Notes: generated by a model from the letters alone, not told the origin. A stretch of 64,000 nucleotides of DNA from Botryllus schlosseri (GCA_051294905.1 CM119372.1:33668001-33732000); one strand, 5' to 3'; positions 18,166 through 64,000 are shown, counted from the stretch's first letter. Numbers and translations are program-made.

Positions 18166-19194
18166 CTACCAGAATAGTTTCGTTAACTTCGGATCGTTCT
18201 TTCGACTTTTCCGAGACTCCCGAGCCGCACAATAACACGACGTATCATCATCGGAGGCGACCGTTTCCCACATTTTCTGCTGTGTGAATTCTGTCAATCC
18301 GTCGACAGCAATTGTAAGAGGGTTCCTCCATCCAGTCCGCGCGACGTTACGAAAAAAAGGGTGAAACATCGCTTGTGAGGCGGTAATGCGATCATAATCC
18401 TCGTAGAGCAACATTCTCATTACCAAGTCCCTAGCGTCTGCGGATATGAGCTTCCAAGCAGGCGAGAGAAAAGAGGTACCCTCACTGGTGTGAGAAATGA
18501 AAGGGTGTGTACCGGTCAGCAAATTGTAAAATACGCAGCCGCACGCGAATATGTCGACTGGATAATGGTATTTGTTCACCGACGTTATTTCCGGGGCTCT
18601 GTAACCCGCCGTACCAACTAAGCCGAACAACTCTTCACCGTGCTTCGCTTTAACAGCTAAACTAAAGCCAACTAGCTTCACATCACCACCAGCAGGCGAA
18701 GGAACGAAAAACAAATTTGGAGGTATCACGTTTCTGTGAATGATTTGATTCTTGTGGCAGTATTGCAGCGCGGTCAAAATACCACGCATGTAAATAATCA
18801 CATCCAATTCGCAGTGCGATTCGCCGTTTTTTTCAATAATGGACCGATAGAGGTCGGCTCCGTTCAGCAGTTCGAACACTTGACAATGTTGAGCTTGCTC
18901 CGCAAAACTTGTGACGAAAGACACAATATTTTCATGACCAACCAGTTTCCTCAATATCTTCTCTTCTTTATCGAACTTCCACTCGTGTTTCTCGGCGTAA
19001 TTCCACTCCTGCGACATCGGCATATTCTTTTTGAGCCTAGTTTTCACGGCATATTCACCCTGTCCAGTCTTAGACTTGTATACTTTCACAAACGACCACC
19101 TGCCTCTACCAATCAATGTTAGCGTGTCTTTGTAAAAATCGGTAATTGTCGCAGGACGAAAATCGCCTCGTGAACAGCCAGCACCGCACAGCAT
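18166..19194 (-). CDS. Intronless CaMK-family (CaMKII/CASK-like) kinase-fold protein, probable pseudokinase, ~342 aa
   Basis: IGRGRWSFV, YAVK, HENIV, VFELLNG.DL, ALQYCHKNQIIHRNVIPPN, VKLVGFSLA, GTAGYRAPE, PVDIFACG, ARDLVMRML, RITASQAMFHPF. First ATG at 19194; AATAAA about 30 nt past the stop. Confidence 0.85.
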   Translation of the reverse strand: MLCGAGCSRGDFRPATITDFYKDTLTLIGRGRWSFVKVYKSKTGQGEYAVKTRLKKNMPMSQEWNYAEKHEWKFDKEEKILRKLVGHENIVSFVTSFAEQAQHCQVFELLNGADLYRSIIEKNGESHCELDVIIYMRGILTALQYCHKNQIIHRNVIPPNLFFVPSPAGGDVKLVGFSLAVKAKHGEELFGLVGTAGYRAPEITSVNKYHYPVDIFACGCVFYNLLTGTHPFISHTSEGTSFLSPAWKLISADARDLVMRMLLYEDYDRITASQAMFHPFFRNVARTGWRNPLTIAVDGLTEFTQQKMWETVASDDDTSCYCAARESRKSRKNDPKLTKLFW

Positions 19195-20864
19195 CCCCGC
19201 AACCACAGAAGAAATGTTAAGAAACGTAATATAAACCAAAAGAGATCGTGCACCTGCGACCTGCCGTGCAATAATGCCCTGCAGACGGAATCGAACTACA
19301 TACACGATACGGCAGTTCAGCAGTCTGTGGCGATAATTGCTATCACGTACGATTACTCACGGAACCAATTTTCGATCAGGATTAATGTGTTTTCCAGCAA
19401 ATATTCAACCCGACTGCCTTCACACGTGGAAACCAAGCTGAGACCGCACTTAACAGTTTAGAAAGCTGTCACCGCCAATCGACTAGCAATAATCTACGAC
19501 GCCCCCTTTCAAACTAGCAGAGGCGGCTGTTCCCAACAGGCAAATAAGGCAATTCCCATACCTATAATTCTGTGCTGTAACATATTAAAATGAAAATAAT
19601 AAATTATAGAGCGGAGCAATGAAAATAGCGAAATTGAGGAGAAGATCGCGTGTTTGTGCTGATAAATGCCTAGTCGGACTATACATTTTCTTGCAACGAT
19701 AGCGCTCATAGCTCCTTATGGCAGCGTCTTAACCCAACTTCTCATAGTCGGAGATGAGCCAAACCGAATCCATTAGAACAGTGGTTCCAAACCATTTTCT
19801 ACCCAAGTATCATTTCGAGGTTTTATGCAGTGCTCGCGTACCACCTACAGAAGTTACGCGTGCCGAAGACGGCTAAAATGTACTCACCGTGGCCGAAGGC
19901 AGCGAAACAGAAAATAAACTGCGCATTTTAAGTCGTAGTATATGATTACTGTAGTGCAGGGGTTCTCAACCTTTTTATCTTCGCGTACCCCTCTTGAGCC
20001 GTCGCGGAGCCCCGCGGACTCCCACAATTTTTTGTTCAAATTTAGCTCAATTATCGTGCAATCGTCATCTGTCTTGTGCAAATGATCTCTGCAGGCTAGT
20101 GACAAACAGTAACAAAATGACTTTTCTTGAAAATAACATCATATTGTTTGCCTAGAAATTGGGTTGACTGTATTATTTCAAAGTCAATTTCAAAGTCAAC
20201 GGCATTTCCTGAAATACGTGGTCGTGTCTTGAAAATCCCCGCCTTCGATTTGACTTGAACGAGTGCCGAAAATCAATTTCAACAAAGATAGGTGGTGGCG
20301 AATGTAGTAATAACGCGTAACGCTTCCGGAGACACATTTGGCTTTTCCCAACAAACATGGCATCAAAATTGACAAACTATTTTTTAACGAATATATAATG
20401 TCAAACCTGGTCATTTCTATCAAGCAGCTCACCTTGAAGTGATCATGGAAAATGGTTATGTATATCTCAGGAGAAAATGGATTTTTCCAAACATTTCGAG
20501 GTCATCGTGATTGACCTTACTAATCTAACTATTTATTTTTTCTACAATCTTTGACAAAGTATCTCTAAACAGCAAAATATATGTATCAGTAGGCTATTGG
20601 TATTTAGCAATTAAAATGAGTCCGCACTGTCGGATATTTCATCTCAGACGGCCATTCTGTTGATGTGAGTTCTGGAGTTTTACTAATGATCAGGCCTGTT
20701 TATTTTTGGATTTCTCCAAAAAAAAAATAGCTTAGTTTTGGATGTTTTCAAATTTTGTTTTTGGAGAATCTTCAAAAATAAGAAATAAAGGTGTTTTTAG
20801 ACCTAATACTACTAGAAAACTTCACCGAAAGTATGTTATTATCCAGTATTCAAGTCCTCCCACA

Positions 20865-38692: not shown

Positions 38693-39760
38693 TCAAGCAT
38701 GGGTCTCCTCAGCTTTTTCTCTAATGTTATTCTGCTGGATCGAGGATTCCTTTGTGTCTGCAAAGATGTGACATTTGCAGAGTAGTCTTCTCCAAGTTTC
38801 GGAAACCGACTTCCAGAGCGCTGGTGTCGTGAGAATGTATACTATTGGGTTGATTGATTCCGTCAGATTGACGACCCAAAGTCTCGTCAGATAAACTACC
38901 GCGTGCTTACGATGTCCGTTGAAGCCAATCATATACCAAATAACGTACAAAAATTTAGGAAGATATCCAACCAGGAAAGAGCACGCGATAGCAGCAAGTT
39001 GGATCAACGCCCTCTTTTCTTCATGTCGAAATGCCGCTCCCCCGACACTGTGTTGCCTCACCAACTTATGCCGGAGCAGAGATAGTCCAATGGCAATGCA
39101 CAGCACGACGACTGAAGATATCGGAACAAGCGTAAGTAAAGCTGTGTCGAAGAAATAGTAAACATAAGCATGCAATCGGCGGTTATTTTTGGCGAAGCAT
39201 ATCCGCTTGTGTCTCGAATCCAATAGGATAATATCCAAATAGTACAGCGGTAGTGGCATGGTCAATACGAATAATGATAACCAAGCGCTGATGACTACAG
39301 TTCTCGCTCTTTTCAGTGTCATGCAGGCAAAGGCATTGGTAGGATATTTGAGTGCACAAAATCTCCATATCGAAAGAGCCAGTACCAGAGCGATTGTAAC
39401 GGCCGATGTGTACCCAATCGTTGGTGACGCGATTTTGCATATGAAGGTTCCGAATGGATAATCTTCATTGGCCGCGGACACAAGTACCGGCGTAACTGCG
39501 AACGGTGATATGAGTGCAGATAGAATGTCCGAGCCACACAAACCCATAACAATTATGTTGAAAGGCGTCTGCTTCATCTTGATGAATGCAACGAGGATCA
39601 CGACGTTCGCCACAATAGCAAAACTCCACACAATTGCGAACGCTATCCAAGTCGCGAGTATTTCATTCTCCGAAAGGCTTTGCGCAGAGTCAGTCACGTT
39701 GGCAGCCTGATTGACGTAAGAAGAAATATTTGGATAAGCCGAAGTCACCGTCGCATTCAT
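38693..39760 (-). CDS. Single-exon class A (rhodopsin-like) GPCR, orphan, 355 aa
   Basis: Seven hydrophobic segments; N-terminal NAT/NIS/NVT/NLS-type glycosylation sequons; AN (TM1), L..SD (TM2), YPFG...CK, LSIWRF (DRY position), W in TM4, P in TM5/TM6, INPIVY (TM7). Confidence 0.92.
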   Translation of the reverse strand: MNATVTSAYPNISSYVNQAANVTDSAQSLSENEILATWIAFAIVWSFAIVANVVILVAFIKMKQTPFNIIVMGLCGSDILSALISPFAVTPVLVSAANEDYPFGTFICKIASPTIGYTSAVTIALVLALSIWRFCALKYPTNAFACMTLKRARTVVISAWLSLFVLTMPLPLYYLDIILLDSRHKRICFAKNNRRLHAYVYYFFDTALLTLVPISSVVVLCIAIGLSLLRHKLVRQHSVGGAAFRHEEKRALIQLAAIACSFLVGYLPKFLYVIWYMIGFNGHRKHAVVYLTRLWVVNLTESINPIVYILTTPALWKSVSETWRRLLCKCHIFADTKESSIQQNNIREKAEETHA

Positions 39761-40009
39761 AGTCGATCAGTAAAACATATATTATGATCTTCTGTTGCAA
39801 TAAATCATACTTTATCGTGACCCAACATGCTAGTCAATCAATATAAATTAACTGTATGTTAACGTTCAAATATATTCACGTACGTACACGTCACACATTC
39901 CCTGGAAAACAGAATATATAATATTTTCCTAATTGGGGCCGTAATAGCCCGGCATTCCCCTGAACAACATTAATAATTTGTTTTCCGCACCCACATACAT
40001 ACCCTAAGT

Positions 40010-46924: not shown

Positions 46925-47504
46925 GTTATCACACGTTTTGCAAATTTGGAGGCTCCTCGTACCCCCGGAAATTGCTGCTCGGATTCCCGGTTGAGAACCA
47001 CTGCCCTAAATCACGTCAGAGCCTTCGGGGCTCAATACGGTAAGCCGACTTGCTCATCAGCCCAGTGCCTCAGCTCCCGTGTACGACTCTTCAAAATGTT
47101 GCTAATCTCGACACCCTATCCGGCTCTTTTATCGAAAATACAGCGTAACTTCCGCAAATGAAAAATGCCTGCTGGCGGAAATTATTTTCAGGAGTATGAC
47201 GGAAAGTTCCCGGAGGCTCCAGTCATCGAAGGCGTACGAAACCCACGTCTTTATTTTAATGTTTCTGCGGGATGGCTGCGCGCCTCTGCGCGTGTTCCAG
47301 ACGTGCTGATCCAGTGTGTGACTACCACTACACCAGCGTTCGAACACGACTTTTAAATAGATAATAATACTGCGCAAATACAAATTCACCATGTCTGTTG
47401 TGAGACAAATCGATTGTAAAAGCTACGATTATTGGTGCGTCGTGAGTTCAACAGATTTTCACGGTGGCGTCCCCACGACAGTAGTAGTATAGATCGGTCG
47501 TGAG

Positions 47505-47835
47505 GTGGGTGGGGTTCTTATGGGCCCGCTCGCATGCGGCTGGGAAACTCGTGTTGGCATGCGGCTCTTATTTCTTATGGGCCCGCTCGCATGCGGCTAT
47601 TGCGTCTTATGGCCCCTCTCGCACGGTAACTCTTTTCAGTATAGGGATCGCTCGCACGCGGCTGGGAAACTCGTGTTGGCATGCGGCTCTTATGTCTTAT
47701 GGGTGAGTTGGCATGCGGCTCTTATGTCTTATGGGTGAGTTGGCATGCGGCGCTTATTCCTTATGGGTGAGTTGGCATGCGGTTATTGCGTCTTATGGCG
47801 GAGCTGGCATGCGGCTATTGTGTTCTTATGGGTGC
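47505..47835. repeat. ~32-bp subterminal tandem repeats (GGCATGCGGCTCTTATGTCTTATGGG) of the Polinton left end
   Basis: Directly visible; diverged inverted counterparts at ~61790-61965. Confidence 0.8.
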
Positions 47836-50800
47836 GTCGGCATATCGTACTTTCGGGTATAGGCATCTCTCGACCGGTGTTGAATATGTATCAAGTAAAT
47901 AGTCATGTGATTGGTCCTTAGTTAATGTGTATATTCCAAATTACGGCGAGTACGACAATGATATATCGTTATTCTTATGGACGCGGCGATGATTCGTACT
48001 TTCGTTGATAGAATGCTAGCGGCATGTCGTAATTTCACCAAAAAGGGTGTGAAATAGTTTGCTAAATCTAGGAATCAGTCGCTTGGTAATTAGTTTACCA
48101 CGGAGCCGGCGTAGACGGCGGTTCGAATAGCAACAATAGCCGCGTTCACAAACTAACACTCCAAAAAGGTGTGAAATATTGGTAAAATCCCGCGATCGCT
48201 CACAAGATAATACCTAAGACATAACCATCGCTCGCGACTCGCTGTTACATACATGCCGATCGTTGACAATGTAATATTTTGGTAATTAGTTTACCACAGA
48301 ACCCGCGTAGACGGCGATACCGACAATAGCCGCGTTCACAAACTAACACTTCAAAAAGGTGCGAAATAGGTTGCAAATCCCACGATCGCTCACGAGATAA
48401 CACCTAAGACATAGCCATCCCTCGCAACTTGTTGTTACATACATTCCAATCGCCACAATGTAATATTTTGATAATCAGTATGTCACGGAACTGGATTTCA
48501 CTGGTAAAATTTAATAAGTGACGAATAACAGAGCCGTCACAGACGATGATTCGAATACCGACAAATTCTCACTTATTTCTGATCCCCCCCTAATCCTTTG
48601 CGAAGTTGACGCTTATTCGAAAAGGTGTGAAATAATTGTAAAACCCTACGTCGCTGACGGGATAATGCATCAGACATAGCGATCTAGTTATAGCATGGGT
48701 CGGAATCCATTCGCGGGATGTACTAGGTAAATTGAGATAATCCGAAACGAAATATTTTGACTTTGGTGTAGTGTGAATTGAAATAGGATTGACAAACATG
48801 GCTATCAACTTTCCCACAGTCCCATATTGATATTATACGCACATTGATTCGAAACAAGTAATGGAACATTGCAACTCTATTCGCGATCCGACTTTTCGTT
48901 TGTCAAAGCGACAGTTTTAACATCTTACCATACTCAAAAGAATTATTTACAACATTAACAAGTGTTCAAAATCTAGTTTTCACTTACTTGATTATACCAC
49001 TGCAACTCACAAATTTGAATTAATTCATTCTGGTTGTATTCATATGATCGGTCTTTTTTATTCAATTGTAAAGGTCGTTACTATTCTGAAGACAAAGTAA
49101 GCTATTTACTAATCGACACATAAATGACTTGACATAAACATATTATATTTTGAGTATACGAGATTTGAATGTCTGAACAATAACTGAGAAATAATTTATC
49201 ACAATAAAATACGTATATTACAGCGTAAAAGATGTTTGAATGTCAGCAACTCTGTACGGTCATAGTTACTACCACTAATTTACCCGACCAACTCGTCATG
49301 ATCATTCCTGAAATCAACACAAATATGACCACTGACTTGAGTTAACCACAAAACAGCATCAAGTTTTAAATCCACTTGTAGCTTACGGATTATTTGAATG
49401 CTGGTTATGTTTTGTTGTAATTGAGTTAACGGAAATAGTATTACGTCTCGACATCTGACCATCTTACCATATTCAAAGAACCAACCACGAAAACATTGGC
49501 AAGTAAATCCGTTAACCGACCAACTCAACAGTATCAACATGAAAAACAGCCAAACATACAGGAATCCATACAAGCACTAAAACCTAAAATCCATAACAAG
49601 CCTGTTTGTATTCATATCCCTACATGTCTTTTTTATTCAACTTGAAAAGTCGTTACTATTCTGTAAGACAAAGAAATTACTATGCGGTATATTTTGTAAG
49701 ATAAAAGTAATTACTTCTCGGTGCCCGCGACTTGAGATTAACATAATATGTTTGAGTATGCGAGATTTGAATGTCTGCCCAACATGTTGAGAATTCATTT
49801 CTTACAATCGAACGCAGGTGTTATATTGAAAATTATCATGATGTAAACATAAGGATTGACACATTGATTTGACATATGTAATAGTTGATCATGACTTGAC
49901 TATTAAATTATTTGCGTTAATTAGACCCGGCGTTGTGGTAAAGATTATTGTGACAGCAACAAACTTTTCAGTACCATTGTTATTAACATATTGAGTTGTA
50001 AACTATGTGTGTCTAAAATGTTCTCGATTGGAAAATTATTCAGCCTTGGTACAAACCACGCAGAGTATTGTGGATATCAGGAAATATTTTACAAATGTAA
50101 TTGTCTGCAGTAAACAAGACTAAAGATGAAACAACAATTTCCTTTGTTGAACAATAACCGGTGCAATACTTTATTGTCGGTGAGAATTGAAACACTTTCG
50201 CGCATTACCTGGTGTCAAGATATCACACTAGGTGAATTGACATACCTACTCACTTTGATCATTACAAAAGTAAATTGGAATATGTTTGCCAGGCCCCACC
50301 TATTCAACTATACTTGAGTAATACAGAAACCTCTCAGCATTAATAAAATCGAAATGTGCGCTACACTGAAATCTACAAAAATGTGTTTGTATTGCTGTTC
50401 GTAGTAGCGATATCGATTTGAACCTCCATCATCTAACCAAACTACTGAGAGTCGTTGTCAATTTACATGACGTTCACTGATTACATACTAGAACTATTTG
50501 TGCAACGCACACGATCAGAGAAATTGGACATTTTTCCATTGCCATTCGTCAAAGTAAATGTCGTCACAATAATCAGTCACTAAAAGACCATATACTTGTA
50601 TGTGATTGAATCGCCGACAATTAACTCGGTAAATCAAACCCCTGAGAAATTTCACTCAGTCATTGGATAGGAAACAGCGTCGCTTAATCGGTGTGAGTCG
50701 CTTTTTCTAAATACTAATCATATCTGTCCAGCCAAGAACAATTTTCACTCACTTGGGTAACGAACCCAGTGTCCAATATCAATACAAGATATTTTCGTCA

Positions 50801-53654
50801 CACAAAAATAATCAACTTCACTCGATATTCCCGTACTACGAAACTGTACAAAGGTTACATGTTTTTGTATGACATGGAATTAATACCGATCGAAGTAACC
50901 GTATTGGAGATAACTTTTAAACAAACACACTCTACGTGGTTAACATTCTCGTCGATTCTATTGTGATTAATGTATACTTCATGTGATCTGGATTCATTTC
51001 GATATGGCTAATCATTCAACCTCGACGGATACGAATTGTCACACACTCAAGTAATATCATACCAAATAGTTATTTACAAGACACAGAAAATTTGTTTTGG
51101 TCGTTTCGACTTTATTACTGGAGATACTCATCACTTCGCTTAATACAATCTAGATTTAAACTCCATCGAACCTTTGGTGTCTATCGTTTTGCTGGATACG
51201 AGTTATGTTAGTCTAAGAGTACACAATTTTCACTCTCTTGGATTATGGACTCAATGTGTTAGCGCACATTCAATATTTTGTTGTATCAACTAGTTACTTT
51301 GTAGGATACGAATGATCATCCTCACAACTCTTACAAAAGTACGAAGGATATTTACATCACACAAAGTAATCGACTTTACTCGATATCCTCACACTACGAA
51401 ACTGAATGGTTGGTTTGACTCTACAAACTGTTCTGATGCCACAAGAACTTTTTCATACGAATGGTTACGTATCTAAATATTCAAATAATCCAACACACGA
51501 CTATAGCACTTACAAAAATATCATAGTTCTTGTAACAAAGTTGTATAAGTATAATGTTTATCGTAAGTCCTACATAGCCATGATATCCGTCCGAGTTTGA
51601 CTTTTAGAAAACATTATACCGACATCGCGACATCTTTCAAAATTAAAACCACGGTGACTGCTTCAGAGATCTACCAATGATATTGCAGTAATACAGTTAC
51701 TTCCACAAAAGAGTATGTATTCGACTTACTTACCACAAATCTAACGCACAAAACAATTTACTTTACTAACGAGAAGCACCGAGCCTCACATCAAAACAAC
51801 TAGAAAGTGGAACTATATTAAAAAACGTCGCTAACCTTTGTGGACCAGCTGTAAATCACACAAGCAACATGTTTCAAGATTCTGGTTATTGAAAAACGTT
51901 AAAGTGTTTCTCCTGCACCAAGTCGTTATGTTGACGAAAGCGTATATTGTAATACCATGATCGATTTGCATTCGTTGGTCACAAACTGTCACTACTCTAA
52001 ATAATTATTTTTCACTCAAACACAAAAGCATACTTGTCGCCAATCGTTTTCATCAAGCACGAGTTCAAGAAGCTTACTTACTACGACATGAATTGCTATT
52101 TTTATGTTGTGTAAATAGGTAATAATTTATTTTAGTAACACTACATCAGCATCATCGAGTTGTGCGAATAGATTTACATGTGGTTTTAATCGAAGTACAC
52201 AGCACGGTCTAATGTAGATTCATCTCTATTGTACAGCAACTCGGTAATCGAAATGCATTAACATTTAAACAACGATCTTGGTTCGTCACGCGAAAAATAT
52301 CTTTACTGTCGCAACACTCTGATACTCTGCACAAGATGTGTAAATCCTTTTCACACTCATAATAATACACTAACGGGATAGCGATGTCAAGCAACAACGT
52401 TTAACAACATCACTGACACTGAACATACGATACCTACCCAAGTAAAAATATCATTTTCACCAGGAGGTCAGTCGTTACTTGTGTACAATTACCATTTTCC
52501 CTTGGGAGTTTAGCGTTACCCGAGTAACAAAACCATTTTCACTTGGAAATATATGTTTTCCCTCAACAACAAACGTTTTTCACTTGGAAATATATTTTTT
52601 CCCTGGGTAACAAACCCCTTTTCACTTGGAAATATATTTTTGCCCTGGATAACAAACCTTTTTCACTTGGAAATATATTTTTTCTCTTGGTAACAAACCT
52701 TTTTCACTTGGAAATATATTTTTACCCGATCAACAAACCTTTTTCACTTGGAAATATATTTTTTCCCCGAGCAACAAACCATTTTCACTGAGCAACAAAC
52801 CCTTTTCTCCCCAGGCAACAAACCCTTTTCGTTTGGAAAACTATCATCTACCTGAGTACCAATACCGTTTGCACTTGGAAATCTATCTTTTCTCTGGGTA
52901 ACAATACCATTTTCGTTTTGAAAACTGACAACCACACCCGACAATTTGATATTTTTGTATATTGTTACAACGGGCAGTGACAAAATATACACCAACAACG
53001 ACTCCGATACATTTGTGCAATCGCATATTTACTTGTGTTGGTGCATCCCATCATCGGTTACCCTCATGCAATGTGCTCTTGTATATCGAAATGTATGTTT
53101 GGGAAATTGGAGAATAGGTTTCGATAGGTCTGTGATGTCCGGGTTCGTGCTTTGGATTTTCCAGAGTCAAAATGTCTGAATAAAACACCTCCTCGACGAT
53201 GGTTGGTATGTGGATAACGGTGTTCGGAAAACGGTTGGATTTATGTCACCCATCGCGATAACAATTCCAGGTCGAGTTTTCCCCGCATGTTTACTATATT
53301 GTGTCTTTATTGATCAATGTATGTCTCAACATTCAGTTTGAAATCGGAAACTCTGATAAAGTATGTAACCGGATCCGGATATCAACTCTGAATCGATAAA
53401 CCAATGAACAATATTCAAAGTAAACATGTTACACCCTGTGTTTCCACGAAAAAATACCATCCAGACATACGTCGCGCTTGTTTGCCCACACCAGTATACG
53501 CGTAAATGGAGGTGTGTGACATTGCATGCAATGTGTTGGTATACAAACATCGATCCACAGACATTATCATAGCCGGTAATTTTGATGCAGATCGAATGTC
53601 ATCAAGCACACCCGATAACAATACCAATAAGCCACATTGCAATGACTCTGAGTC
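47796..53654 (+). repeat. Left arm of giant palindrome
   Basis: Reverse complement of 54581-60476; mirrored ORFs in the track (e.g. 49280/58700, 48590/59456, 53326/54685). Confidence 0.97.
52455..52925. repeat. ~41-bp minisatellite (TTTTCACTTGGAAATATATTTT...AACAAACC), mirrored at ~55310-55785
   Basis: ACTTGG recurs at 52541, 52582, 52624, 52665, 52706 and 52746. Confidence 0.85.
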
Positions 53655-54032
53655 CGCGCTATGACATCGATATTTCGACGCCGTTCACTGATTTATTCGA
53701 TGGTGTTATCGTGTTGTAACATTACAAGATAGTCATGACTCTATCTGCAGACGGACCACCCAGACCAATTGGACACATCGATCAATGTGTTGTCGACACC
53801 GAAGTTTTCTGCTGAGACTGCAGCGTTTGACCAATGTGAACTATCGAAGTACGGGTGCTCGAAATGATTGCGATCAGTCTTTCAGTCACGATGCATGGAT
53901 ATCGCTACTCCCACATAATGACTCCAAATAAATATCGTGAACAGTGATTCTGCAAATCTCGGACTGATACTGTGATCCAATAAGGTGTGTTTCTGTGGAA
54001 TGAAGACTGCAATCGTACACCACAATAGAACA

Positions 54033-54831
54033 CTACCTCGTGATTTCACACGCAAGCATATTACACACTTTCGTAAGGGTCCAGTTCGTCCGGTTTCGAA
54101 ACGGTCATCGCCACAAGAGATCGAGGTTGGTCTCGTCATATCGGAGCATTTTGAAACTGTCATCACCACAAGGTTATTGACGTTGGTTTCAGTTGGTCAT
54201 GTCAATCCGTTTCACAATCCACCGTTTTTCAACTCCCCGCACCATAGTGTTACGACACAGACAAGAAGCGTCGGTGGAAATAATAAAACACGGAAGGGAC
54301 ACTTTGGTGTTATTTGACATGGACTTTACACCTGACGAACCTTACATTCGAGCGATGCATTGGAATGCCGCTTGTATTATTGACGTAGAAGGAACAGAAA
54401 TGTATCGATTTATTGGTTTCGTACATATCCAACGAAAATCTGGGTATATGATTGTGCATGGCTCGCATATTCGACTGTGAACGCTCTATTGATATATGCT
54501 GTACAGTTCACTTTCGCCGTCGTGCGAATAACCCATGTTACGGTTCCATGTTTGTGCGTCTGTATGTCATGCTTCAGATTGACTCAGAGTCATTGCAATG
54601 TGGCTTATTGGTATTGTTATCGGGTGTGTTTGATGACATTCGATCTGCATCAAAATTACCGGCTATGATAATGTCTGTGGATCGATGTTTGTATACCAAC
54701 ACATTGCATGCAATGTCACACACCTCCATTTACGCGTATACTGGTGTGGGCAAACAAGCGCGACGTATGTCTGGATGGTATTTTTTCGTGGAAACACAGG
54801 GTGTAACATGTTTACTTTGAATATTGTTCAT
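54033..54831 (-). pseudogene. Possible decayed Polinton minor capsid (penton) gene
   Basis: Frameshifted pieces VTPCVSTKKYHPD...CLPTPVY, KWRC, LCRNTMVRGVEK and ETGRTGPLRKCVICLRVK recall penton motifs (S..YHP.N...LP....W.C/V; CD.C....VG...; ...C.LH.R). By-eye only. Confidence 0.4.
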
Positions 54832-57800
54832 TGGTTTATCGATTCAGAGTTGATATCCGGATCCGGTTACATACTTTATCAGAGTTTCCGATTTCAAACT
54901 GAATGTTGAGACATACATTGATCAATAAAGACACAATATAGTAAACATGCGGGGAAAACTCGACCTGGAATTGTTATCGCGATGGGTGACATAAATCCAA
55001 CCGTTTTCCGAACACCGTTATCCACATACCAACCATCGTCGAGGAGGTGTTTTATTCAGACATTTTGACTCTGGAAAATCCAAAGCACGAACCCGGACAT
55101 CACAGACCTATCGAAACCTATTGTCCAATTTCCCAAACATACATTTCGATATACAAGAGCACATTGCATGAGGGTAACCGATGATGGGATGCACCAACAC
55201 AAGTAAATATGCGATTGCACAAATGTATCGGAGTCGTTGTTGGTGTATATTTTGTCACTGCCCGTTGTAACAATATACAAAAATAACAAATTGTCGGGTG
55301 TGGTTGTCAGTTTTCAAAACGAAAATGGTATTGTTACCCAGAGAAAAGATAGATTTCCAAGTGCAAACGGTATTGGTACTCAGGTAGATGATAGTTTTCC
55401 AAACGAAAAGGGTTTGTTGCCTGGGGAGAAAAGGGTTTGTTGCTCAGTGAAAATGGTTTGTTGCTCGGGGAAAAATATATTCCCAAGTGAAAAAGGTTTG
55501 TTACCCAGAGAAAAAATATATTTCCAAGTGAAAAAGGTTTGTTACCAAGAGAAAAAATATATTTCCAAGTGAAAAAGGTTTGTTATCCAGGGTAAAAATA
55601 TATTTCCAAGTGAAAAGGGGTTTGTTACCCAGGGAAAAAATATATTTCCAAGTGAAAAACGTTTGTTGTTGAGGGAAAACATATATTTCCAAGTGAAAAT
55701 GGTTTTGTTACTCGGGTAACGCTAAACTCCCAAGGGAAAATGGTAATTGTACACAAGTAACGACTGACCTCCTGGTGAAAATGATATTTTTACTTGGGTA
55801 GGTATCGTATGTTCAGTGTCAGTGATGTTGTTAAACGTTGTTGCTTGACATCGCTATCCCGTTAGTGTATTATTATGAGTGTGAAAAGGATTTACACATC
55901 TTGTGCAGAGTATCAGAGTGTTGCGACAGTAAAGATATTTTTCGCGTGACGAACCAAGATCGTTGTTGAAATGTTAATGCATTTCGATTACCGAGTTGCT
56001 GTACAATAGAGATGAATCTACATTAGACCGTGCTGTGTACTTCGATTAAAACCACATGTAAATCTATTCGCACAACTCGATGATGCTGATGTAGTGTTAC
56101 TAAAATAAATTATTACCTATTTACACAACATAAAAATAGCAATTCATGTCGTAGTAAGTAAGCTTCTTGAACTCGTGCTTGATGAAAACGATTGGCGACA
56201 AGTATGCTTTTGTGTTTGAGTGAAAAATAATTATTTAGAGTAGTGACAGTTTGTGACCAACGAATGCAAATCGATCATGGTATTACAATATACGCTTTCG
56301 TCAACATAACGACTTGGTGCAGGAGAAACACTTTAACGTTTTTCAATAACCAGAATCTTGAAACATGTTGCTTGTGTGATTTACAGCTGGTGCACAAAGG
56401 TTAGCGACGTTTTTTAATATAGTTCCACTTTCTAGTTGTTTTGATGTGAGGCTCGGTGCTTCTCGTTAGTAAAGTAAATTGTTTTGTGCGTTAGATTTGT
56501 GGTAAGTAAGTCGAATACATACTCTTTTGTGGAAGTAACTGTATTACTGCAATATCATTGGTAGATCTCTGAAGCAGTCACCGTGGTTTTAATTTTGAAA
56601 GATGTCGCGATGTCGGTATAATGTTTTCTAAAAGTCAAACTCGGACGGATATCATGGCTATGTAGGACTTACGATAAACATTATACTTATACAACTTTGT
56701 TACAAGAACTATGATATTTCTGTAAGTGCTATAGTCGTGTGTTGGATTATTTGAATATTTAGATACGTAACCATTCGTATGAAAAAGTTCTTGTGGCATC
56801 AGAACAGTTTGTAGAGTCAAACCAACCATTCAGTTTCGTAGTGTGAGGATATCGAGTAAAGTCGATTACTTTGTGTGATGTAAATATCCTTCGTACTTTT
56901 GTAAGAGTTGTGAGGATGATCATTCGTATCCTACAAAGTAAGTAGTTGATACAACAAAATATTGAATGTGCGCTAACACATTGAGTCCATAATCCAAGAG
57001 AGTGAAAATTGTGTACCCTTAGACTAACATAACTCGTATCCAGCAAAACGATAGACACCAAAGGTTCGATGGAGTTTCAATCTAGATTGTATTAAGCGAA
57101 GTGATGAGTATATCCAGTAATAAAGTCGAAACGACCAAAACAAATTTTCTGTGTCTTGTAAATAACTATTTGGTATGATATTACTTGAGTGTGTGACAAT
57201 TCGTATCCGTCGAGGTTGAATGTTTAGCCATATCGAAATGAATCCAGATAACATGAAGTATACATTAATCACAATAGAATCGACGAGAATGTTAACCACG
57301 TAGAGTGTGTTTGTTTAAAAGTTATCTCCAATACGGTTACTTCGATCGGTATTAATTCCATGTCATACAAAAACATGTAACCTTTGTACAGTTTCGTAGT
57401 ACGGGAATATCGAGTGAAGTTGATTATTTTTGTGTGACGAAAATATCTTGTATTGATATTGGACACTGGTTTCGTTACCCAAGTGAGTGAAAATTGTTCT
57501 TGGCTGGACAGATATGATTAGTATTTAGAAAAAACGACTCACACCGATTAAGCGACGCTGTTTCCTATCCAATGACTGAGTGAAATTTCTCAGGGGTTTG
57601 ATTTACCGAGTTAATTGTCGGCGATTCAATCACATACAAGTATATGGTCTTTTAGTGACTGATTATTGTGACGACATTTACTTTGACGAATGGCAATGGA
57701 AAAATGTCCAATTTCTCTGATCGTGTGCGTTGCACAAATAGTTCTAGTATGTAATCAGTGAACGTCATGTAAATTGACAACGACTCTCAGTAGTTTGGTT

Positions 57801-60476
57801 AGATGATGGAGGTTCAAATCGATATCGCTACTACGAACAGCAATACAAACACATTTTTGTAGATTTCAGTGTAGCGCACATTTCGATTTTATTAATGCTG
57901 AGAGGTTTCTGTATTACTCAAGTATAGTTGAATAGGTGGGGCCTGGCAAACATATTCCAATTTACTTTTGTAATGATCAAAGTGAGTGTGAAATGATGCG
58001 AACGGCTTAAGCATTAATCAAATGGTGGTATGTCAATTCACCTAGTGTGATATCTTGACACCAGGTAATGCGCGAAAGTGTTTCAATTCTCACCGACAAT
58101 AAAGTATTGTACCGGTTATTGTTCAACAAAGGAAATTGTTGTTTCATCTTTAGTCTTGTTTACTGCAGACAATTACATTTGTAAAATATTTCCTGATATC
58201 CACAATACTCTGCGTGGTTTGTACCAAGGCTGAATAATTTTCCAATCGAGAACATTTTAGACACACATAGTTTACAACTCAATATGTTAATAACAATGGT
58301 ACTGAAAAGTTTGTTGCTGTCACAATAATCTTTACCACAACGCCGGGTCTAATTAACGCAAATAATTTAATAGTCAAGTCATGATCAACTATTACATATG
58401 TCAAATCAATGTGTCAATCCTTATGTTTACATCATGATAATTTTCAATATAACACCTGCGTTCGATTGTAAGAAATGAATTCTCAACATGTTGGGCAGAC
58501 ATTCAAATCTCGCATACTCAAACATATTATGTTAATCTCAAGTCGCGGGCACCGAGAAGTAATTACTTTTATCTTACAAAATATACCGCATAGTAATTTC
58601 TTTGTCTTACAGAATAGTAACGACTTTTCAAGTTGAATAAAAAAGACATGTAGGGATATGAATACAAACAGGCTTGTTATGGATTTTAGGTTTTAGTGCT
58701 TGTATGGATTCCTGTATGTTTGGCTGTGTTTCATGTTGATACTGTTGAGTTGGTCGGTTAACGGATTTACTTGCCAATGTTTTCGTGGTTGGTTCTTTGA
58801 ATATGGTAAGATGGTCAGATGTCGAGACGTAATACTATTTCCGTTAACTCAATTACAACAAAACATAACCAGCATTCAAATAATCCGTAAGCTACAAGTG
58901 GATTTAAAACTTGATGCTGTTTTGTGGTTAACTCAAGTCAGTGGTCATATTTGTGTTGATTTCAGGAATGATCATGACGAGTTGGTCGGGTAAATTAGTG
59001 GTAGTAACTATGACCGTACAGAGCTGCTGACATTCAAACATCTTTTACGCTGTAATATACGTATTTTATTGTGATAAATTATTTCTCAGTTATTGTTCAG
59101 ACATTCAAATCTCGTATACTCAAAATATAATATGTTTATGTCAAGTCATTTATGTGTCGATTAGTAAATAGCTTACTTTGTCTTCAGAATAGTAACGACC
59201 TTTACAATTGAATAAAAAAGACCGATCATATGAATACAACCAGAATGAATTAATTCAAATTTGTGAGTTGCAGTGGTATAATCAAGTAAGTGAAAACTAG
59301 ATTTTGAACACTTGTTAATGTTGTAAATAATTCTTTTGAGTATGGTAAGATGTTAAAACTGTCGCTTTGACAAACGAAAAGTCGGATCGCGAATAGAGTT
59401 GCAATGTTCCATTACTTGTTTCGAATCAATGTGCGTATAATATCAATATGGGACTGTGGGAAAGTTGATAGCCATGTTTGTCAATCCTATTTCAATTCAC
59501 ACTACACCAAAGTCAAAATATTTCGTTTCGGATTATCTCAATTTACCTAGTACATCCCGCGAATGGATTCCGACCCATGCTATAACTAGATCGCTATGTC
59601 TGATGCATTATCCCGTCAGCGACGTAGGGTTTTACAATTATTTCACACCTTTTCGAATAAGCGTCAACTTCGCAAAGGATTAGGGGGGGATCAGAAATAA
59701 GTGAGAATTTGTCGGTATTCGAATCATCGTCTGTGACGGCTCTGTTATTCGTCACTTATTAAATTTTACCAGTGAAATCCAGTTCCGTGACATACTGATT
59801 ATCAAAATATTACATTGTGGCGATTGGAATGTATGTAACAACAAGTTGCGAGGGATGGCTATGTCTTAGGTGTTATCTCGTGAGCGATCGTGGGATTTGC
59901 AACCTATTTCGCACCTTTTTGAAGTGTTAGTTTGTGAACGCGGCTATTGTCGGTATCGCCGTCTACGCGGGTTCTGTGGTAAACTAATTACCAAAATATT
60001 ACATTGTCAACGATCGGCATGTATGTAACAGCGAGTCGCGAGCGATGGTTATGTCTTAGGTATTATCTTGTGAGCGATCGCGGGATTTTACCAATATTTC
60101 ACACCTTTTTGGAGTGTTAGTTTGTGAACGCGGCTATTGTTGCTATTCGAACCGCCGTCTACGCCGGCTCCGTGGTAAACTAATTACCAAGCGACTGATT
60201 CCTAGATTTAGCAAACTATTTCACACCCTTTTTGGTGAAAGTACGACACGCCGCTAGCATTCTATCAACGAAAGTACGAATCATCGCCGCGTCCATAAGA
60301 ATAACGATATATCATTGTCGTACTCGCCGTAATTTGGAATATACACATTAACTAAGGACCAATCACATGACTATTTACTTGATACATATTCAACATCGGG
60401 CGAGAGATGTCTATACCCGAAAGGGCGATTCACGGCCGCACCCATAAGACACAATAGCCGCATGCCAGCCCCGCCA
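54581..60476 (-). repeat. Right arm of giant palindrome
   Basis: Near-identical to the left arm apart from scattered SNPs and a 39-nt block at 57988-58026. Confidence 0.97.
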
Positions 60477-60932
60477 GGCGTTACAAAGTTTATAGTGTTT
60501 TGGGCGATTCCCCTTGTCTCACCCTCACCCGCACGCAAGGATGTGAAGCATTACCCTGTGAGTGGCCGTAGGATTTTAAAATTAATTCACACCTTTTCGA
60601 ATAAGCGTTCACATCCTTGCGTGCGGTTGAGGGTGAGACAAGGGGAATCGCCCAAAACACTGTGAACTTTGTAACGCCTCTCTGTAATAAAATATGTTCA
60701 CTACGAAACGATGTGTTTTGGGGGATTCCCCTTGTCTCACCCTCACCCGCACGCAAGGATGTGAACGCTTATTCGAAAAGGTGTGAATTAATTTTAAAAT
60801 CCTACGGCCACTCACAGGGTAATGCTTCACATCCTTGCGTGCGGGTGAGGGTGAGACAAGGGGAATCGCCCAAAACACTGTAAACTTTGTAACGCCTCTC
60901 TGTAATAAAATATGTTCACTACGAAACGATGT
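60476..60932. repeat. Hairpin cluster: 72-bp stems around a 60-bp core present in both orientations
   Basis: Stem 60476-60547 / 60608-60679, core 60548-60607, inverted core 60766-60825; tandem period 218 bp. Confidence 0.9.
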
Positions 60933-60940
60933 GTTTAGGG

Positions 60941-61260
60941 CAGTGGTTCTCAACCTTTTTTCAGACACGCCCCCCTTCATTATAGTGAAAAATGTCGCGC
61001 CCCCTTATCGTCATATCACAAAATCCAACCGGGATGCTAACAACCCCAACAGATTGTTTGATGGCATGGAAGATTATGACTGTTGATGAAAGAATTAAAA
61101 AATATGAAATTCGGTAAATATATATGGAGAAACACGCGTGAATTGGAGGTAAATCGCGCAGAGAATGTAATTTTTTTTTCAGTTTTCCGCTTCTTCGCGC
61201 CCCCTTCATATGCTTTCACGCCCCCCAAGGGGGGCGCGCCCCCCAGGTTGAGAACCACTG
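60941..61260. mobile_element. hAT MITE inserted in the Polinton right end
   Basis: CAGTGGTTCTCAACC/GGTTGAGAACCACTG; perfect TSD GTTTAGGG. Confidence 0.88.
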
Positions 61261-62144
61261 GTTTAGGGGGATTCCCCTTGTCTCACCCTCACCCGCACGC
61301 AAGGATGTGAAGCATTACCCTGTGAGTGTCGTAGGATTTTAAAATGATATCACACCCTTTTGAATAAGCGTTCACTTCACAAAGGATTGGGGTTAGAGCG
61401 GAAATAAGTGACAATTTGTCGCTATTCAAGTTACCGACACTGGCGGTCTGTTATTCGTTACTTGTTAAATCTTACCAGCGATATCAAGTTCTGTGTCAAA
61501 CTGCTTGCGAAAATTTCACCGCGTGAGCGATCGGTATGGTTATGACACCAAGTCGCTAAAGATGGTTATGTCCGAGACATTATCTTGTCAGCGATCGCGG
61601 GGTTTTGCAAACTATTTCACACCTTTTTGGAGTGTTAATTTGTGACCGTTGTTATTGTTGGTATTCGAATCACCGTCTACGACGGTTCCGTGGTAAACCA
61701 AGCGACTGATTCCTAGATTTAGCAAACTATTTCACACCTTTTTTGGTGAAAGTACGACATGTCGCCCGCAGTCTATACCGAAAGTACGAATCACGACCGC
61801 ACCCATAAGACGCAATAGCCGCATGCGAGCGCCGCCGTAAGAAATAAGAGCCGCTCGTCACCCCCGCCATAAGACGCAATAGCCGCATGCCACCCCCGCC
61901 ATAAGACAAAAGAGCCGCTTGCCACCCCGGGTTTCCCAGCCGCTTGCGACCCCCGCCATAAGAATAACGATATATTATTGTCGTACTCACCGTAAACGTT
62001 GGGATTAACTCGAATCGGTCATATTTAATAATTTGTAATACACACATTAACTAAGAATCAATCACGTGACTATTTACTATTCCTGATACTTCTTCAACAC
62101 AGCGCGAGAGTTGACTATACCCGAAAGTACGAATTACCACCACG

Positions 62145-62455
62145 GCACCGGTTGAGTGATCCCTATACCGAATAGTGTTACCGGTCGAGAGATGGCTATG
62201 CTAGCACCGGTTGAGTGATCCCTATACCGAAAAGGGTCACCGGTTCAAGACGAGTTTCGAGGCACCGGTTGAGTGATCCCTATACCGAAAAGGGTTACCG
62301 GTTCAAGACGAGTTTCGAGGCACCGGTCGAGTGATCCCTATACCGAAAAGGGTTACCGGTCGAGAGATGCCTATACCAACCCAGGCACCGGTCGGGTGGA
62401 AGGGGGGTCTGAAAGGGTCACCGGTTCAGGACGAGTTTCGCGGCACCGGTCGGGT
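62145..62455. repeat. 58-59-bp tandem repeat in the Polinton right terminus, about 5 copies
   Basis: GCACCGGT.GAGTGATCCCTATACCGAA at 62145, 62204, 62262 and 62320; only one inverted copy on the left (~47620-47655). Confidence 0.85.
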
Positions 62456-64000
62456 GCACCCATAAGAACCCCTGCCACCCCCAGAGCGATCTATACTACT
62501 ACTCACGACAAAAGTTAGAGAGCCACGGTACTTGAATTTCCTACTGAGCTTATCTGAATTATTCCACGTCAGAATTAGTCACAAATATCCACGATTTGCA
62601 TCCGCATAACGTTTGTCACTCGCACTCCAATTATTTGCATCCGCATAAGTGCGTAAGATTTAACATCTCACTATTTAAAAAAGCACCGGCCTAAGTAGCC
62701 TACTAAAGGGCATTCCTGACTAAACGCAACTAATCCTATCACTCATGCACGATACTGAAGCTAATATCTAGTATTACAGGTGTTATACATGATTGTTACT
62801 ATTTCATTCATCTACACTTACGACCTCATGCATTGTCCTAGCATAGACAGATGAGAGCAAATGTGGGTGCGGATCGTTATAATTCTAACCGCTATAGTAG
62901 CTAAATTAAAACACTCCTGCAGTTTCTTTTGACGTTGATTTTTGATTCTGTCATTTATGTTGCCTTCCGGATGACATGTGGCTGTCGCACCAGGCTTACG
63001 AACCTGCAAATTTGCGAAAAAGTTCTGTATCTCTCTCGGCCGAAGTGAGGTTTAATTAAATTATGTAAGTGCTTCATTTTTCAACGAGACGATATTTATT
63101 ACAACCCAATATTAAAGCCACCAAGTCATTATATGCTTATGTAACGCAATTACTGACGTACTGGTAACGGTTCCGCTAGAACATTCAAATTTTTCGATGA
63201 CACCCTGATTGTCTTTGATATCTTTTCAAGGTATAAATTAATTTTGCTAGTTGTACATGATCAAATAAATCACACTTTCACTACTTATTACCGGAATTAT
63301 TGAAAATAAGCTGGTGGAAAGCTATCTATTTTATAATGGATTCGTACTTTTGAACATTCTAATCGGCGCGTATCAACAATGACCACGTAAGAAACGGTAG
63401 ACCCACTACATCCATTTGTGTCTCGTATAGTTGATAAATATATATAGGTCTACTAGTAGCCATCGTGTATTGCCATGGACACGGCCATCTTCTTTCGCAT
63501 ACGCTTCTAAACAACATTCGAGGTTGCGCAATCGATGATGACCCGATGAAAACCGTTCGTCAGTTCAGGTTTGTTGTTTTTAGTATTTGTGGTGATTGCT
63601 TAAGACAATTGATGTCTATTGCGCTGTTTACTGTAATTCGGAGGTGCCAAACTCAAATTGCGTCGCGGGCCGGATTCCAGTCTTCAACTCGCCCACTGGC
63701 CGCATCATCCAACTGATTTCCAAATGTCACCTCGTGTCCTTGCTTTTCACTTGAATACTTTATTATCAATCATATATAGATAATTTACAGATCATAGGGC
63801 AGGCTTTTTGCCCTGGCGGCACACTTTGGAAATGAAAAATAGTTCGCGACACACTAACACAGAGGTACTAAATTATCTGGGCTTACGGCATGTGCAAGCT
63901 ACCGGAATATTTAGCAACACCCACCGTCGTACAGAGTTGGTGTCCGACGAAGTACTTCAACCTTTCCGGAGCACTCAATTAGGCTTTGCTCTGCTTCAAA

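Follow-up and report, generated by a model that had tools for sequence, protein, structure and literature searches.

A gene-less palindromic family of Polinton-derived elements in the genome of Botryllus schlosseri

The genome of Botryllus schlosseri harbours an abundant family of giant palindromes that end like Polintons (also called Mavericks) and carry no recognisable gene. Here, we focus on one copy, a 15,024-bp element at positions 47480-62503 of a 64,000-nucleotide stretch on C2 (GCA_051294905.1 CM119372.1:33668001-33732000; the whole of this stretch is referred to as the window), and compare it with other copies and with gene-bearing Polintons of the same genome. The element is best read as one member of a non-autonomous Polinton/Maverick derivative. 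The family as a whole is probably a heritable lineage of Polinton satellites that is mobilised in trans, that arose when one end was duplicated in inverted orientation, and whose arms have been made symmetrical again during propagation; the mechanism is one that we infer. The original prediction, drawn from the window by itself, was of a gene-rich Polinton that had been folded into a copy-back (snap-back) defective genome and integrated. It is partly supported: what emerges is a mobile, Polinton-derived foldback form and not the product of a single event.

Structure of the element

The boundaries of the element were read directly. The left tip at 47480 is AGTAGTAGTATAGATCG... and the right tip at 62503 is ...CGATCTATACTACTACT. 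The termini, AGTAGTAGT...ACTACTACT, are of the 5'-AG...CT-3' type that serves as the terminal-inverted-repeat (TIR) criterion for Polintons, whose TIRs Kapitonov & Jurka reportedly described in 2006 as ending in this way. These termini, the perfect 6-bp target-site duplication (TSD) CACGAC that flanks them, the inverted arms of ~5.9 kb and the 926-bp spacer between the arms had all been predicted, and direct reading and self-alignment bear them out. The parts of the element, from left to right, are as follows.

47474-47479, no strand: TSD, left copy, CACGAC, read directly and the same as 62504-62509
47480-47795, plus strand: left terminal region, 316 bp, (AGT)3ATAGATCG followed by CTTATGG-type 32-bp subterminal repeats (family D4)
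47796-53654, plus strand: left palindrome arm, non-coding, with internal tandem repeats of 190 bp and 41 bp
53655-54580, no strand: central spacer, 926 bp, unique, the turn-around region, conserved across the family
54581-60476, minus strand: right arm, an inverted copy of the left arm by self-alignment
60477-61936, no strand: extra symmetry-breaking segment, ~1.46 kb, comprising a foldback unit, a nested MITE (miniature inverted-repeat transposable element) and a diverged copy of subterminal arm sequence
61937-62503, minus strand: right terminal region, with 58-bp subterminal repeats at 62144-62461 (families D7 and D9), then ...CGATCTATACTACTACT
62504-62509, no strand: TSD, right copy, CACGAC, read directly

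Alignment of the two arms (47796-53654 against 60476-54581) runs over 5,898 columns and contains 38 mismatches and four gap openings that account for 41 gap positions, the largest gap being one 38-nt indel (50247 / 57988-58025). Eleven of the mismatches are bunched at 47837-47877. The remaining ~5.78 kb, inward of 47877, contain 27, an arm divergence of 0.47%, which marks the copy as a young insertion. Given this count of clustered and scattered mismatches, the arms are not '100%' identical, despite rounded figures to that effect. The inner 11 nt of both arms (53644-53654 and 54581-54591) form a small palindrome, GACTC-N-GAGTC; this would be compatible with microhomology or a hairpin turn-around at founding, and is proof of neither.

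Beyond the palindrome the two ends are unequal, with 316 bp on the left and 2,027 bp on the right (60477-62503). The extra segment on the right includes a short foldback unit with 185-nt arms (60476-60660 and 60713-60897) and, at 61307-61936, subterminal arm sequence for a second time, in diverged form. The nested MITE at ~60933-61265 is unrelated to the element and has the ends CAGTGGTTCTCAACC...GGTTGAGAACCACTG; copies of it occur elsewhere at 77-88% identity (C15:5,798,134, C2:36,487,416 and C1:28,397,932).

The closest relatives of the window copy are the right arm of a copy at C4:27.59 Mb and a copy on C13, both at 97-98% identity. In these two copies the position equivalent to 60475/47790 adjoins the terminal 566 bp (61937-62502) directly, on both sides, and the ~1.46 kb at 60477-61936 is absent. 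The right terminal region of the window copy is 90-96% identical to the ends of the same two copies, whereas its left terminal 316 bp are of another subfamily type and are 93-95% identical to the ends of copies that have different interiors. Because it combines a left end from another subfamily with ~1.46 kb of additional sequence on the right, we read the window copy as a recombinant or rearranged member of the family.

Coding capacity

The element had been predicted to contain no open reading frame (ORF) longer than ~125 amino acids (aa). Its gene-less character stands; the exact ceiling does not, as one stop-to-stop frame on the minus strand, the longest, reaches 131 aa (60609-61004). None of the 53 six-frame ORFs of at least 55 aa in the element reached the Pfam cut-off, the genes of Polintons (pPolB and rve integrase included) gave no tblastn or tblastx match within it, and Rfam yielded no match across the 64-kb window. 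Other complete gene-less copies contain no internal frame of 180 aa or more, their longest frames being 179 aa (C2c, mirrored in both arms), 173 aa (C3) and 163 aa (C10).

Short frames in the spacer (53976-54480; L029:832-1209) share peptide stretches between copies, such as ...TIVLR.RQ.ASVEIIKH... In the window copy this frame is interrupted; it has no Pfam match, and the shared peptides are probably mere nucleotide conservation. A separate observation concerns the copy on C9, one arm of which contains a 3.6-kb insertion with an 896-aa open frame (C9:874,682-877,369, minus strand).

A mobile multi-copy family

The genome assembly that was searched comprises 495 Mb in 219 contigs. With at most one mismatch allowed, the 17-nt terminus occurs at 282 candidate sites (149 + 133), against eight (4 + 4) for the reversed control. 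A second variant of the terminus, common to gene-bearing Polintons, occurs at 697 candidate sites (343 + 354), against 23 (9 + 14). When plus and minus ends are paired, the median spacing is 13,967 bp for the first type (31 pairs among 100 sites listed) and 14,114 bp for the second (n=33 among those listed), and 16 of the 31 and 18 of the 33 pairs fall within 11.5-15.5 kb. Five pairs of the second variant are 15.8-16.8 kb apart, two of which enclose matches to pPolB. From these spacings it follows that the gene-bearing form is longer than most elements with either type of terminus; there are also short members, of 0.46-6 kb. At ~490 copies of ~14 kb, a rough estimate from the motif counts, the palindromic elements may occupy on the order of 1% of the 495-Mb genome.

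Ten further gene-less loci were fetched, giving 11 examined loci with the window and setting aside elements of 20-42 kb. Both ends could be located at seven of the ten, and these copies together with that in the window carry perfect 6-bp TSDs in eight cases out of eight: CACGAC, GTCAAG, TACAGT, GTCGAC, CACGAC, AACAGT, GACAGT and CGCGAC. The only repeated hexamer is CACGAC, which the C10 copy shares with the window. No family end was found at the C13 and C1 loci, and at the C9 locus only one end was found within the stretch fetched. The family is mobile and generates 6-bp TSDs. The original prediction proposed that the foldback form would prove to be itself mobile if its junctions recurred at other loci with different TSDs, and they do.

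As a side observation, the target hexamers look non-random over ten elements, these eight and two of the gene-bearing Polintons described below: four end in CGAC (CACGAC twice, CGCGAC and GTCGAC) and three in CAGT, the remaining ones being GTCAAG, TGCGTG and TGTGAC. For the TSDs that end in AGT (TACAGT, AACAGT and GACAGT) it is ambiguous where the duplication stops and the (AGT)n tip starts. The C13 copy (C13:11,297,024) is cut off by another element, one end of which begins AGTAGTAGTATACAGGTC; this end has the 12-nt tip in common and then continues differently.

The palindromic layout is as widespread as the ends. Homologous arms are present at the ten other fetched loci, where the arm sequence again occurs in inverted pairs, and the same architecture is found at no fewer than ten loci other than the window, on eight contigs. 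Colinearity of the window copy with those on C10, C3 and C13 extends from the end of one arm through the spacer into the next arm, at 85%, 80% and 94% identity, respectively. Among 1,036 first-look candidates, at least 40 loci that were scored have the spacer at full length (1-926), with an identity of 89-97%. Variant junctions do occur: the C15 palindrome lacks the spacer and has a different turning point, the left arm of C2b is truncated, and the centre of C2c measures 4.8 kb. Since the same arm/spacer junctions are found in subfamilies that differ by 7-20% (80-94% identity through the centre), the palindrome was founded once, long ago, and then inherited. Both junctions are ancestral and the foldback form is heritable, and a typical member can be described as little more than one giant pair of TIRs (6-7 kb each) around a unique centre of ~0.9 kb.

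Concerted evolution of the arms

The two arms of a copy resemble each other far more closely than copies resemble one another. Within-copy arm identity is 99.0-99.97% in seven of the eight copies measured, while identity between copies is ~70-98%. In the C10 copy the arms are 6.7 kb long, begin at the very tips of the element, reach in to a 956-bp spacer and are 99.2-99.3% alike; those of C2c (6,582 bp) are 99.74% and those of C2a (4,762 bp) 99.9% alike, and the values for C3, C13, C15 and C2b are similar. Arms that stay alike within copies that differ by up to ~30% imply that one arm is copied onto the other far more often than mutations arise, since arms that accumulated changes separately would by now be roughly as distant as the lineages themselves. 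These identity figures argue robustly that the arms evolve in concert.

The C10 copy (C10:10,496,802-10,511,116) illustrates the extent of such copying. It has two nested pairs of ends, of which the outer pair is of the type used by gene-bearing Polintons (AGTAGTATAGTAGATC) and is flanked by the TSD CACGAC. The inner (AGT)3ATAGATCG ends sit 398 bp inward (L021:1802-2200, L022:5718-6116) and, together with the 398 bp outside them, are mirrored on both arms. The sequences that adjoin these inner ends (ATCGTA and TACGAT) are each other's reverse complement and not direct repeats. A plain nested insertion would have left a direct TSD and therefore does not account for this arrangement, which fits copying of a whole arm.

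Relationship to gene-bearing Polintons

An autonomous Polinton with matching ends had been proposed as something to look for, and a gene-bearing Polinton with related ends lies at C4:11,074,135-11,090,667. It is 16,533 bp long, has TIRs of 784 bp at 99.6% identity, the TSD TGCGTG and the terminus AGTAGTATAGTAGATC, and encodes DNA_pol_B_2 (1.3e-8), rve (4.7e-16) with Chromo, and an ATPase. Its TIR is 69.6% identical to the window element's left end over 207-214 nt, with a further 54 nt at 98%. A second Polinton with similar ends, at C2:29,488,846-29,505,437, is 16,592 bp long, has the TSD TGTGAC and contains a match to pPolB; between its TIRs and the left ~360 nt of the window element, identity is 83-84%. 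The TIRs of the Polintons examined here range from 359 to 784 bp. An alignment of ten ends shows 33 of 125 columns to be invariant, in the order AGTAGTA..GATC..CTTATGGG..GAAACTCG.., with a variable, partly palindromic 'box' between. By this comparison the terminal 120-360 nt of the palindromic elements are homologous to TIRs of gene-bearing Polintons in the same genome, and the TSD is of equal length, which upholds the Polinton relationship that had been proposed. The near-normal genome length was also confirmed, at 15,024 bp against 16.5-16.6 kb for the gene-bearing relatives.

Potential helpers are plentiful. A pPolB frame from a Polinton on C11 identifies at least 78 loci in the genome, which fall into four identity classes and most of which have open frames of 1,290-1,310 aa; in the class with matching ends, no fewer than 46 loci were scored, and their proteins are 95-100% identical. 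Polintons with open pPolB frames are very abundant in this genome. Genome-wide Pfam scans with PF03175 (pPolB) and PF00770 (adenain-type protease) came back empty and are false negatives: PF03175 does match a 985-aa frame when this is searched directly, and protein queries recover the pPolB loci.

The Pox_A32 profile PF04665 has a single match in the genome, which led to the first Polinton, C11:4,506,703-4,526,063, an element of 19.4 kb with an ATPase and an rve+chromo integrase. It was considered as a partner and rejected, as its ends are unrelated to those of the palindromic element; a second Polinton, at C2:36.47-36.49 Mb, was rejected because its ends are likewise unrelated. Near its right end the C11 Polinton contains a frame of 257 aa (C11:4,522,794-4,523,564; L031:6794-7564) in which a caspase domain is recognised (Peptidase_C14, E 4.2e-13) and which may be cargo.

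Proposed mechanism

A satellite lineage mobilised in trans is, in our judgement, the likely explanation of the family. Polinton proteins would replicate, and probably package, the palindromic elements in trans; the common ends and the equal TSD length suggest that mobilisation takes this route. Protein-primed strand-displacement synthesis would start on the (AGT)n terminal reiteration, as in the jumping-back of adenovirus. Sliding-back and jumping-back are described as requiring terminal reiterations, for which adenovirus has 3'-GTAGTA (PMC4974454), and the (AGT)3 at the exact tip of the element fits this need of protein-primed replicons.

In the founder, synthesis from one end would have turned back, with the polymerase switching to the displaced or nascent strand, and so have given rise to the order end-arm-turn-arm'-end. 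Once the genome was palindromic, the displaced strand would have been a template identical to the proper one, so that the same switch would have become 'legal'. It would then yield a full-length molecule whose second arm was freshly copied from the first, by which the arms would be kept alike. Template switching in a palindromic genome would explain both the concerted arms and the mirrored structure of the C10 copy. The polymerase of phi29 is reported to switch onto the displaced strand (PMC4176320), and the subgenomic molecules that accumulate during phi29 infection are ascribed to template switching (PMC4974454). Integration would be carried out by the Polinton rve integrase, which would explain the 6-bp TSD. 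The median length of ~14 kb, against 16.5-16.6 kb for the gene-bearing partners, fits a lower length limit imposed by packaging.

The copy-back genome of the original prediction survives in part. One end is indeed duplicated in inverted orientation, with a unique turn-around between the two copies; beyond their terminal few hundred nucleotides the arms match none of the gene-bearing Polintons compared, and the junctions are not formed de novo and different in each copy. Fold-back by the polymerase is a plausible route to such a duplication, and the founding event may have been either copy-back or end-to-end recombination.

Several points count against a trans-mobilised satellite lineage. Replication, packaging and mobilisation in trans are all inferred from sequence. 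The prediction that the arms are the re-copied end of a gene-rich Polinton failed: beyond the terminal few hundred nucleotides they resemble none of three whole gene-bearing Polintons at the DNA or protein level (blastn, tblastn and tblastx), a comparison that covered these three and left out the fourth pPolB class (~63% identity). With no remnant of a Polinton gene in them, the arms cannot, on present sequence, be called a re-copied Polinton end. The window copy has asymmetric ends of its own, the right being no mirror of the left, and the arms of the C4:27.59 Mb copy are just 74-87% alike. Gene conversion from arm to arm within the chromosome could also give concerted evolution. Finally, the counts from the genome searches are lower bounds or candidates and not curated copy numbers.

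Alternative explanations

A more far-reaching version of the satellite lineage can be put forward only tentatively. It would make the elements true satellite genomes of animal polintoviruses, gene-less palindromic replicons that endure as heritable lineages and go on diversifying, in which one arm is resynthesised from the other at each round by obligatory or frequent copy-back of the protein-primed polymerase and in which a length near the capacity of the capsid is selected. Palindromic forms appear to outnumber helpers in the germline. If this version were correct, the family would be a genomic fossil record of protein-primed strand-displacement replication and packaging by animal Polintons, and its members might work against their helpers, either as decoys that interfere with them or by giving rise to long hairpin RNA.

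The same family could also have been founded, and its arms kept alike, by recombination. This might occur end to end ('terminal transposition') between replicating linear genomes, or as conversion of arm to arm in the chromosome. The outcome predicted for the sequence is the same as for copy-back, and the window and C4:27.59 Mb copies are chimeric for subfamily segments, so recombination between members does happen. Nothing in the data speaks directly against recombination, as the mirrored inner terminus of C10 needs whole-arm copying and either process could provide it. We consider it a rather unlikely source of the palindromes and of the likeness of their arms.

It is improbable that the elements are Foldback- or Galileo-like and move by cut-and-paste, as double-stranded DNA for which a DDE enzyme (the integrase of Polintons or some other transposase) suffices, with neither protein-primed replication nor packaging. 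Very long TIRs with internal tandem repeats, repeated subterminal boxes and the short members of 0.46-6 kb are features expected of such a system. The ends are homologous to Polinton TIRs, however, the 6-bp TSD is that of Polintons too, and at the exact tip a trinucleotide is reiterated. Lengths are concentrated at 12-15 kb, for which a MITE-like cut-and-paste element gives no reason, and concerted arms require copying.

That a single copy-back defective genome of a gene-rich Polinton was integrated once, at the window locus, is very improbable. The layout of end, arm, spacer, inverted arm and end is there, as are the 6-bp TSD and the near-normal length. The one-off event originally proposed is contradicted by junctions that are common to diverged subfamilies (80-94% identity): the spacer and its junctions recur, 80-97% identical, at numerous loci whose TSDs are different, so that the founding long predates the insertion in the window. 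The arms also lack any trace of a Polinton gene.

Least credible of all is a local inverted duplication after insertion, or an assembly artefact caused by a chimeric fold-back read. Palindromes of this kind are a known class of assembly artefact, and no read contig bridges either junction: among DNA-run contigs, which measure 58-88 nt over this multi-copy stretch, none spans a junction with 31 nt on either side. Against an artefact stand the recurrence of the architecture at at least ten other loci on eight contigs and the arms themselves, which are set apart from each other by 27-38 scattered differences and a 38-nt indel. Of the 30 bins of the centre, all 30 are covered by three DNA runs, each from a different study, although they do so with very short contigs and for a multi-copy family. 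The one RNA run examined has seven reads with merely partial overlap with the centre, and no RNA sequencing run is listed as carrying the sequence.

Comparison with known systems

The palindromic family resembles Polintons/Mavericks in its 6-bp TSD, its 5'-AG...CT-3' ends, its length of ~15 kb and the homology of its terminal 120-360 nt. It differs in having no pPolB, integrase or any other gene, and in TIRs of 6-7 kb that make up nearly the whole element. Typical Polintons are described as having 6-bp TSDs and long TIRs, the TIR of an Anolis Polinton measuring 584 bp (PMC3014272). Polintons are said 'by definition' to encode pPolB and integrase (PMC5499653); lacking both, the palindromic element is therefore no Polinton by definition and is a non-autonomous derivative. 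Butterfly Polintons have TIRs of ~2 kb that are reported to have grown by inverted duplication of one end and to carry capsid and protease genes (bioRxiv 10.1101/2025.02.07.637071). These elements remain gene-bearing, whereas the palindromic family has non-coding arms of three times that length and has lost its core.

The survey of Anolis reports that no non-autonomous Polintons were found (PMC3014272). In the literature searched, to which Repbase and subscription journals did not belong, the term 'non-autonomous Polinton(s)' refers to Tlr1 only, and no foldback, palindromic or defective Polinton family is described. The novelty of a gene-less palindromic Polinton family is claimed within those searches only.

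The nearest functional analogues would be the copy-back or palindromic subgenomic molecules of phi29 and adenovirus, in which one end is duplicated in inverted orientation, which depend on a helper, and which involve a polymerase of the strand-switching type. Phi29 template-switch molecules and the genomes of adenovirus incomplete particles are copy-back or palindromic and arise anew in each infection; to our knowledge they do not form heritable lineages. In the palindromic family, by contrast, the junction is fixed, subfamilies have diversified, integration into the germline has occurred hundreds of times and the arms are not recognisable as helper sequence.

Foldback and Galileo of Drosophila are similar in their very long, internally repetitive TIRs and in that most copies have hardly any coding sequence, if any. 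Galileo is a member of the P superfamily, whereas the palindromic family has Polinton ends and 6-bp TSDs, and the partners with the same ends are Polintons. The TSDs of Galileo are 7 bp and those of FB 9 bp, and the partner is a transposase, of the P type or of another.

For the replication and spread of Polintons in animals there is so far little more than a model derived from their gene content, and this family offers tests of it at the level of sequence. In hundreds of gene-less copies, only the Polinton-type ends have been kept, the length has stayed near that of a full genome, and the arms have remained alike despite the divergence of lineages. Each feature bears on one step of the model: terminal trinucleotide reiteration on protein-primed initiation, symmetrisation of whole arms on strand switching or hairpin repair, and clustering of lengths on packaging. 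The family also suggests that defective genomes of a copy-back-like kind can turn into long-lived genomic parasites of a virus-like transposon. For annotation, it matters that such elements encode nothing and hence are easily taken for assembly errors or overlooked.

Surroundings of the element

Outside the element, the window contains three coding features, all on the minus strand. A DDE-transposase helix-turn-helix fragment lies at 2416-3066 (HTH_Tnp_4, 5.5e-7), an uninterrupted 396-aa protein-kinase frame at 18169-19356 (Pkinase, 1.3e-44), and an uninterrupted 357-aa frame for a rhodopsin-type G-protein-coupled receptor at 38696-39766 (7tm_1, 9.8e-24).

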